DNA of 64,000 nt from an uncultured Verrucomicrobiae bacterium (GTDB lineage: Bacteria; Chlamydiota; Chlamydiia; Chlamydiales; Rhabdochlamydiaceae). Positions 37,316-38,629 of this stretch are shown here, piece after piece. The first letter of the stretch is position 1; every line of letters begins with the position of its first letter. The position numbers were made by a program, and so were the translations under genes. The stretch spans positions 160,001 to 224,000 of the forward strand of contig CAVSUE010000002.1 in NCBI GenBank assembly GCA_963731265.1, read 5' to 3'. The notes under the pieces were generated by a model. The model saw only the letters and a list, made by a program, of their open reading frames with translations. It had not been told where the DNA came from and made no database searches.

Positions 37316-38629
37316 TCACCGCAATGTCGTCAATTTATCAAAGCAGCACAAAATTTCCACATGGTTGGTGCCTGGGAAAAAGAGGTAAGCTTCGGCGTTA
37401 TTCACCTTCCAGCCATGCTGAAGAAGCTTTTCGCAATCCCTTTGAAATGAAACAGGCCCGCAACTCAAGTAAATGATCTGGGAGATGTTTTGAGCGCCGC
37501 AAAGCGCGTTAAGGACAGCTGGATCGAGCCCTTTTCGTGGGGGGTCGACGATAATCACATCGTTTTCAGAGACCAGATTTAAAGCTTTTTCTGTGGAAGA
37601 GATTTTCATAGAGATTTTTCGTTGAAGTTCTGGCTTAAGCTTTAAGCGGCTTAAATGAAAACACTCCGAGGCAAAGGGGTTAATCTCGGTGCAGGTCACC
37701 GTTCCGGATTGGTTCACTAAATTAAGTCCAATCACCCCCACTCCGGCGTAAAACTCTAAGATGCGCTGGTTTGGTTTTGTCCACTCTCGAATTCTCTTCA
37801 ATGCTTGTACAAAAAGGGCCTTATTTGCCTGTCCAAAACAAGCGGGGTGAAACGCGCACTCCACCTCGCCTAATGTTTCCCAAAGGTAAGGTTCGCCGTC
37901 GCATAATTCCCATTTTTCTCCAAAAATTTTGTTGGTTTTCTCCGTTTGAAAGTTCAACCAAATGGAGTGGAGTTCTCCTTCAGTGTAAAGCCGTTTTACA
38001 CAACGTTCCAGCGTTGGATCTTTTTTGTTAACGACAAGTGTGAGTTGAACTCGGCCTGTTTTGTCCTCCACAACAAACTGAAGATAACGGACTATCCCTG
38101 TTCCCGATTCTTCTTGATAGGGATCAATTTTTAAATCGATTAACGTTTGCTTAACTGTGGCATAAACACGATTGATCGAGGGGTGGTGGAGTGGGCAGGT
38201 GGGAATGGTGACAACTTGATGAGAGCCATGTTTAAAGAGGCCGATCTCTGGCTTGGAGACGGTACCACGCACGGCTAGTTTGGCCCGGGAGCGCCAATGG
38301 GTAACCTCTCCTGCTATAAGCGAGATGGGGATTGATGGAGCGACACGATTAAAAAACTCCTTAACCTCATTCCAAATGGGAGGCGAAGAGACATCGCCGT
38401 GGATTTCGCAACCCGAGCATAAGGGAAAATAGTCGCATTCGAGGTATACTGCGACCGGAGAGCTTCTTAACTTTTTGCGGCCGTCATAGCGGTCCATCTT
38501 CGAACGATCGCTCGTCGGCGGTATTGCTTCAATATCGCCCTCCTCACGATCGTTCAAATCTGAGCCACTCTGAGACCGCCAAAAGTTAAAAATCTCTCCG
38601 CTCGCAGCATATGTGGAAAACTCTGTCAT
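37316..38629 (-). CDS. TrmA/RlmD-family RNA (uracil-5)-methyltransferase with a 55-aa N-terminal in-frame palindromic insert
   Basis: C..F..CSGC, WRSRAKLAVR, FGQAN, EFYAGVG, VDPPRKGL, YLSC, FFPGTNHVE. Start taken at ATG 38629. Confidence 0.88.
   Translation of the reverse strand: MTEFSTYAASGEIFNFWRSQSGSDLNDREEGDIEAIPPTSDRSKMDRYDGRKKLRSSPVAVYLECDYFPLCSGCEIHGDVSSPPIWNEVKEFFNRVAPSIPISLIAGEVTHWRSRAKLAVRGTVSKPEIGLFKHGSHQVVTIPTCPLHHPSINRVYATVKQTLIDLKIDPYQEESGTGIVRYLQFVVEDKTGRVQLTLVVNKKDPTLERCVKRLYTEGELHSIWLNFQTEKTNKIFGEKWELCDGEPYLWETLGEVECAFHPACFGQANKALFVQALKRIREWTKPNQRILEFYAGVGVIGLNLVNQSGTVTCTEINPFASECFHLSRLKLKPELQRKISMKISSTEKALNLVSENDVIIVDPPRKGLDPAVLNALCGAQNISQIIYLSCGPVSFQRDCEKLLQHGWKVNNAEAYLFFPGTNHVEILCCFDKLTTLR
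38445..38611. mobile_element. Foldback MITE/palindromic element, family E, TA-bounded, in frame in the methyltransferase gene
   Basis: TATACTGCGACCGGAGAGCTTCTTAACTTTT ... AAAAGTTAAAAATCTCTCCGCTCGCAGCATA (31-bp inverted repeat, 4 mismatches); inner arms GAACGATCG/CGATCGTTC. Confidence 0.88.

Follow-up and report, generated by a model that had tools for sequence, protein, structure and literature searches.

A palindromic, MITE-like element inserted in frame near the start of an m5U RNA methyltransferase gene in a member of the Rhabdochlamydiaceae

The methyltransferase locus and its inserted segment

The window analysed here is the whole of a 64,000-nucleotide stretch from an uncultured bacterium of the Rhabdochlamydiaceae, and the gene under study lies on its minus strand next to a glmU-like gene. 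The features referred to below are as follows.

37316..38629, minus strand: host gene for a SAM-dependent m5U RNA methyltransferase of the TrmA/RlmC/RlmD family without a TRAM domain; 437 aa (382 aa without the insert)
38408..38437, minus strand: C-x5-C-x2-C motif (C65, C71, C74), invariant in 13 aligned sequences
38445..38611, no strand assigned: full-length foldback, MITE-like, 167 bp including both TAs; net insertion 165 bp
38445..38480, plus strand: outer arm 1, an exchangeable terminal inverted repeat, TA then TACTGCG...
38481..38575: inner hairpin core, common to genomes with different outer arms; compensatory change in 9 of 22 pairs
38576..38611, minus strand: outer arm 2, complementary to arm 1 at 31 of 36 positions
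38445..38446: terminal TA, copy 1 of the putative target duplication (empty site in relatives CA/TG)
38610..38611: terminal TA, copy 2 of the putative target duplication
38612..38620, minus strand: perfect chlamydial-type DnaA box TTTTCCACA, codons 4-6 (F-S-T), directly adjoining the element
38612..38884: predicted replication origin between the methyltransferase and glmU-like genes (GC-skew minimum, DnaA-like boxes, AT stretch)
14703..14878, minus strand: foldback of another family, in frame in recC

By its m5U methyltransferase domain, motifs and fold, the host protein belongs to the TrmA/RlmC/RlmD superfamily, and it matches PF05958 above cut-off. It is not RlmD proper, being without the N-terminal TRAM domain (no match in a profile scan) and under the equivalog cut-off: the top NCBIfam model, RlmD (TIGR00479), gives 168 bits, below its cut-off of 183.55, and scores fall under the curated cut-offs of all RlmD, RlmC and TrmA models. 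What it shares with RlmD (RumA), RlmC (RumB) and RlmCD is the fold, the cysteine motif and the DPPRKG, SC and HxE motifs, whilst the missing TRAM domain and the low scores set it apart. Residues C65, C71, C74, C145, DPPRKG, S389-C390 and H423-x-E425 are invariant in 13 sequences; C65, C71 and C74 together with C145 are presumably Fe-S ligands, and the other invariant residues we take to be catalytic. The structure model resembles RlmCD/RumA (TM 0.68-0.73; about 0.72 for RlmCD), with residues 1-60 at a pLDDT below 50 and the remainder in the RlmCD fold; low values within the insert are expected anyway, because no aligned sequence covers it. Homologues, judged by source names, include Rhabdochlamydia, Parachlamydiales and Protochlamydia, which makes an environmental chlamydia the most likely host organism. 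Among the best 120, the cysteine motif is present in 104, its modal distance from the start being nine residues, and the six with more than 30 residues before it have unrelated sequence there.

From the ATG at 38629 the minus-strand frame is open through MTEFST, then 55 extra residues, then YLECDYFPLCSGC. A preliminary description had reported a 167-bp element with inverted 31-bp termini and TA at each end, and its coordinates proved exact, with complementarity at 27 of the outer 31 bp and at 31 of the outer 36. The element pairs from end to centre as a single hairpin, with a minimum free energy of -99.6 kcal/mol as RNA (z -12.6; 0 of 200 shuffles equally stable) and a z of -7.5 when folded as DNA. 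Excision of 165 bp (55 codons), proposed in the same description, does restore a normal N-terminus: MTEFST joins YLECDYFPLCSGC, where the closest relative reads MTEFSTHLKCDYFPLCSGC. The alignment with orthologues that had been put forward as a check gave the same answer, the segment being absent from 13 of 13 orthologous loci examined. Genome G003 (92 % protein identity; 89.5 % DNA identity over the contigs compared) is empty at precisely this place (net difference 165 bp), and contigs from three of the four public runs examined join across the insertion point with the same net length as G003. Runs X8 and X12 contain the empty site and also carry the element elsewhere, on several contigs where its flanks differ, the best pieces being 97-98 % alike. 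At the empty site, relatives read CAC where this genome has TAC (CA, not TA), so that we infer the TA duplication of this copy; their CA also means that a TA target would need a prior C-to-T change or an off-target event.

The segment is a recent in-frame insertion, after codon 6, of a multi-copy, fully palindromic repeat, and the remaining gene is intact. It has the characteristics of a MITE, in that it is short (<300 bp), has no transposase gene, ends in terminal inverted repeats, forms a stable stem-loop, and occurs as dispersed copies with filled and empty sites. The 56-aa insert peptide has no Pfam or NCBIfam family match; the element itself has no Rfam match at gathering score (a chance miRNA-type match gave 18.3 bits against 200) and, as DNA, no match in a plasmid collection, and a promoter and terminator scan of 38400-38900 found none.

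At the landing site, TTTTCCACA is the DnaA box proposed for Chlamydiae in PMC2275245. Codons 4-6, which form the box, are identical in 8 of 8 orthologues, synonymous positions included, and the hairpin sits on the gene side, leaving the box intact. The cumulative GC-skew minimum of the contig falls at window position 38113, and the skew of the large contig rises from the contig start to a maximum near 1.06 Mb. Within the predicted origin the stretch 38760-38860 is 75 % AT, and near-boxes (3-10) occur in the same region of 11 of 12 orthologues. The origin call is a prediction, because the genome contains the motif 84 times and, in the G002 contig, the skew is lowest 40 kb away. As codons 4-6 double as the DnaA box, the conserved MTEFST is weaker evidence for the translation start.

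A 70-bp stem beginning 18 nt after the AUG may lower expression. An unlikely, more drastic outcome is that the insertion silenced or truncated the gene, through a stem that blocks translation, cleavage by RNase III or restart at the ATG of codon 45 (MDRYDG), with the gene dispensable through paralogues. The closeness of the -99.6 kcal/mol stem to the AUG, the placing of that in-frame ATG upstream of all conserved residues and the two paralogous matches in the same genome would all fit, as would the processing of Correia hairpins by RNase III described in PMC2229807. However, the gene shows no frameshift, stop or excess amino-acid change and keeps all motif residues; codon 45 lies inside the stem and lacks a purine-rich leader, whilst the original ATG and its surroundings have not changed. 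In priA and recC, in-frame hairpins of far greater length are maintained, and an RPE-bearing Gmk is translated and active (PMC2229807). Against G003, dN is 0.035 and dS 0.26, a ratio of 0.135 (median 0.116 across 301 genes), and non-synonymous to synonymous changes stand at 5:7 on this branch and 9:13 on that of G003, with no excess here; a normal ratio does not prove that the gene still works, since decay has had little time to set in after so recent an insertion.

A recent, probably neutral in-frame MITE insertion is the reading we consider likely. The insertion would have survived through a length that is a multiple of three and the one stop-free frame of this copy, with the 55 residues forming an unstructured N-terminal tail before the first cysteine motif, where the TRAM-less subfamily has about nine residues; the peptide would have no function of its own.

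The element family and its probable means of mobilisation

The genome holds a single sister copy (C1:145037-145267), which is intergenic, 90 % identical and enlarged by an internal 64-bp addition. The element matches 10 of 129 genomes of its taxonomic family; at the level of the class, 13 of 300 scored genomes, from four families, match its core. The family had been called one of 'coding' foldbacks, a label that finds no support, as 12 of its 14 full members contain stops in all six frames. None of 22 other element loci examined lies within a long open frame, and selection on the insert peptide left no signal, 14 of the 17 codons differing from the sister copy being non-synonymous. Compensatory changes occur at 34 of 51 predicted pairs (12 aligned members), and those of the core alone (9 of 22 pairs) exceed all 500 shuffles and all slid controls, with relatedness inflating the covariation. 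The core also has conserved bulges, and 4 of the 12 aligned members are free of stops from arm to arm.

This core was found with four different outer arm types, among them the following.

TACTGCG arms: this genome, G005, G136 and G011
a longer TACTGCGCCC arm: G001 and G013
GGGAT arms: G023 and G021

All 8 copies of the GGG-armed core are flanked by a direct 3-bp TWA duplication, either TAA/TAA or TTA/TTA, a signature that we take to be typical of the IS1031 group of IS5; a literature search on the TWA/IS1031 target signature found no paper. Two further core clusters mix terminal classes, these having been assigned automatically and some of them wrongly. At the protein level, the 56-aa peptide has 17 matches among 1.84 billion representative proteins, comprising 14 short stand-alone ORFs (39-86 aa), one low-complexity sequence and two real proteins. 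The latter, MenC (P0132) and TspO (P0137) of other organisms, carry the core in the frame in which the methyltransferase reads it, enclosed by Y...GFVN and NSQNL peptides, which are the arms of the family found in priA and lpxK of this genome. The element would accordingly be modular in the sense that the outer arms around the core can be replaced by those of other classes, and the mobilising transposase could change with them.

As to what moves such elements, 45 of the 58 with TAC ends are bordered by TA on each side, and the flanks of TAC foldbacks show T in 45, A in 46 and a pyrimidine in 72 of 90, against backgrounds of 0.31, 0.31 and 0.48. The amplified IS630 of G001 has TA/TAC ends (TA followed by TAC), and its flanks mostly read T-A-Y, the bias also seen in the foldbacks. 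An intact IS630 in G002 (L133:5318-6388; 356-aa frame with DDE_3, E 3.6e-31, and HTH domains) has ends that agree with those of another TA/TAC foldback family, 18 of 22 bases being shared at one and 17 of 22 at the other; of 322 element ends, 30 match it at 16 or more bases. TA/TAC or TA/TAG ends were also seen, by eye, in 11 of 18 related IS630s from metagenomes. The methyltransferase element is thus probably mobilised by an IS630-type transposase, the likeness of ends and target sites linking the two at the level of the class. The arm of this element shows 6-10 of 22 identities to every IS630 end tested, including those of the 18 metagenome relatives, and shares only TA/TAC with them.

Searches for a parent element gave no match in one metagenome pattern scan for an IS with the element's arm and none for DDE_3 in G005 (93 % complete, with four element copies), and a pattern search in five genomes showed no clear IS-length inverted pair among the matches listed. 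An apparent IS630 with foldback ends in G013 turned out to be an IS630 into which a foldback had inserted twice. The mobile elements of the element's own genome were likewise rejected as parents, its IS630 copies having CTAG ends and its IS5-type element other ends. Four young G005 copies, 95 % identical, have TA on one side only, which suggested blunt insertion with no duplication; this was set aside as a rule on the strength of the TA counts for TAC-ended elements and of data on ISY100. That IS630-type element duplicates TA, and in 3 of 39 inserts the TA on one side is accompanied by a lone A on the other (PMC2170065).

Several further observations concern IS630 and foldbacks. The transposase gene of an IS630 in G013 (L197:150-1095) carries two identical TACCGAAA foldbacks, the copy in the DDE region being in frame. 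A lone CTAG-type IS630 end lies at 36960-36996, beside the 3' end of the methyltransferase region, and its first 12 bases are those of a CTAGTG foldback family. G001 harbours at least 139 related TA/TAC foldback ends and about 16 identical IS630 copies.

In the proposed mechanism, an IS630/Tc1-mariner-type transposase supplied in trans would bind the outer arms of a non-autonomous cut-and-paste element and insert it at TA, duplicating the TA. It is distinctly improbable that the hairpin itself drives a non-DDE route instead, by single-strand HUH/REP-like transfer or replication template switching, with TA merely part of the palindrome. TA is indeed self-complementary, which makes a duplication indistinguishable from blunt insertion, whole-length pairing and covariation exceed the needs of a transposase, and such a route would suit both the one-sided TA of the G005 copies and the failure of the searches to turn up a cognate IS. 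The direct 3-bp duplication beside all eight GGG-ended cores nevertheless needs a staggered target cut, the sister TAC families have their ends and flank bias in common with IS630, and the conserved bulges of the core argue against constant copying of one arm from the other.

Foldback elements across the genome

At a score of 45 or more, 463 self-inverted windows are present in the genome where about five are expected, and the resulting catalogue comprises 342 foldback loci (53.7 kb, fragments included). By classes that rest on a home-made gene caller, 285 of these are intergenic, 14 lie inside genes, 34 are in gene-edge open frames and nine are overlapping, whilst 80 % of the TA sites of the genome fall within genes. 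Candidates for in-frame fusion numbered 31, made up of the 14 loci inside genes and 17 with an upstream start, and their orthologues were sought in G002 (1.2 of its 2.3 Mb) and G003 (80 of its 260 contigs). An orthologue was available for 13, 15 had none and three had too short a flank. The 13 divide into eight internal in-frame insertions (pyrB, lpxK, priA, RNase R, secretin, recC, the methyltransferase and a membrane protein unnamed by the scan), one C-terminal extension, by which bioB is lengthened in frame, and four outside the orthologous reading frame. Verified in-frame fusions therefore number nine, and at most 27, among the 342 loci, with six of the eight internal ones no more than 40 codons from a protein end.

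The elements in the methyltransferase and recC had been presented as independent families within 25 kb of one another, which is upheld by a local score of 18 (p 0.33 against 300 shuffles) and a distance of 23.6 kb; a TA/TAC-type terminus is their only shared feature, and the methyltransferase element likewise shows no similarity beyond chance to two other elements of the window. The wider proposal, a genome-wide system of protein-embedded hairpins, stands in that foldbacks occur throughout the genome and several are fused in frame, but 'protein-embedded' is overstated for a population of which 285 of 342 members are intergenic. Five more foldback loci of other families (1394-1609, 18396-18549, 19413-19571, 20309-20543 and 41485-41521) lie within the window, all intergenic or in a short doubtful ORF.

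For 56 loci a comparison with G003 was possible, and 45 are at least 25 bp shorter there (two of them shared copies with deletions and about ten complex), the other 11 being shared; the ratio indicates a fast turnover of foldbacks. The distribution fits insertion with subsequent purging and not gene targeting, and most insertions into genes would be lost. A dedicated selfish-hairpin system that targets genes and hides as in-frame peptides is accordingly very unlikely. It could draw on the nine verified fusions, eight of them internal, in housekeeping genes, on the priA-type arm family, which is mostly in frame, and on the core's use of one frame in MenC and TspO and its stop-free state in 4 of 12 members. 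Set against these are the intergenic majority despite the abundance of genic TA sites, the closure of 12 of 14 family members in all frames with 0 of 22 other loci in a long open frame, the 14 of 17 non-synonymous codon differences from the sister copy, and the fact that 14 of 17 peptide matches are stand-alone ORFs of 39-86 aa. The in-frame copies look rather like tolerated survivors of insertion at TA, by analogy with what has been described for RPE, ERIC and Correia elements. Finally, an assembly artefact or native variable segment is scarcely credible: the filled allele was not seen in reads and no public run had half of the stretch's words, yet the copy differs by 10 % from the one sister that the genome contains, which speaks against a mis-joined duplicate, its junctions are base-precise and in frame, orthologues are without the segment, and 45 of the 56 comparable loci are likewise shorter in G003.

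Other repeats were noted in passing. A family with GACTATC ends (G000:C1:1126239-1126394 and C1:729254-729421) appears, by eye, to duplicate CATG and lands on start codons, and an IS4-type element has both its copies (G000:C1:935257-936767 and C1:1689184-1690694) placed where two tandem GAG-ended foldbacks meet, with a 9-bp duplication. Within the window, a 300-bp tandem duplication at 34779-35378 (96 % identical) repeats the C-terminal domain at the 3' end of a 554-aa ORF. A two-copy element at 159-1372 (G000:C2:159047-161372), only partly in the window, has a serine-resolvase-like ORF and a long second ORF, and is presumably IS607-like.

Relation to known elements and wider meaning

The closest parallel is offered by the Rickettsia palindromic elements (RPE) of Ogata et al. 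(2000, 2002), which PMC10969869 and PMC2229807 describe as hairpins of about 150 bp, in several families, with some in-frame fusions. The likeness lies in whole-length hairpins of about 150 bp, several families, an intracellular bacterium and apparently neutral in-frame fusions into conserved genes, and the methyltransferase is likewise a conserved protein with a whole-length hairpin read in frame. By the same accounts, RPE families code for a conserved peptide, with almost half of their copies genic, whereas under a tenth of the chlamydial copies are. The chlamydial elements further differ in showing target duplications, IS630-like ends and cores that change arms, and in the lack of an NCBIfam or Pfam match for the insert peptide, a comparison made at the level of models, not DNA. 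These libraries, we assume, contain RPE models. A family-wide open frame, a conserved peptide and a high genic share are all absent from the element family. The methyltransferase element therefore works like an RPE fusion, but neither its sequence nor the coding state of its family makes it an RPE.

A second group for comparison comprises the TA-flanked bacterial MITEs RUP (linked to IS630-Spn1), ERIC/IRU and Correia/NEMIS, as portrayed in parts of PMC2229807 (see also PMC10969869 and PMC3184786). Common to these and the chlamydial elements are a size below 200 bp, terminal inverted repeats, terminal TAs, a long stem-loop, a mostly intergenic location, occasional in-frame fusions and insertion into IS genes. 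The chlamydial genome stands apart in that no homology to them was found and more than ten families coexist, and a single core with both TA and 3-bp TWA signatures was not found described in the portions of the MITE literature at hand. A share of about 90 % intergenic is the norm for predicted MITEs according to bioRxiv 2024.01.18.576219. With IS630 and ISY100 (PMC2170065), the elements share the TA target, TA/TAC or TA/TAG ends, the T-A-Y flank bias and an occasional one-sided TA; they differ in that the methyltransferase element encodes no transposase and its arm reaches at most 10 of 22 identities to any IS630 end found. Further literature compared, in part, comprised PMC9769881, PMC9723776 and PMC7226160. 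The searches found no paper on such elements in Chlamydiae; the available sections of PMC9723776 and bioRxiv 2024.01.18.576219 make no mention of chlamydial elements of this kind, and the supplements of the preprint may list chlamydial MITEs.

Arm exchange around a conserved core is the novel aspect of an otherwise known kind of in-frame MITE insertion. Taken further, and tentatively, environmental chlamydiae might host combinatorial MITEs, in which the core would be a replicator in its own right that swaps the arms of unrelated transposase classes (the TA-duplicating IS630 type and the 3-bp TWA type), persists after any single IS is lost, passes between families and, when its arms are stop-free, enters proteins repeatedly in one frame, as in the methyltransferase, MenC and TspO. 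The usual picture of a MITE is a deleted copy of one IS, and one core with two target signatures suggests instead that MITEs can switch transposase. Palindromes inserted in frame have been described from Rickettsia and enterobacteria; filled and empty sites, target signatures and a matching IS630 for a sister family make RPE-like mobility testable here, and G001 is the best place to look for active foldback/IS630 pairs. For the chlamydiae themselves, such inserts burden protein annotations with 55-100 spurious residues or with false starts, and the landing of this one beside a DnaA box flags the likely replication origin of the lineage.
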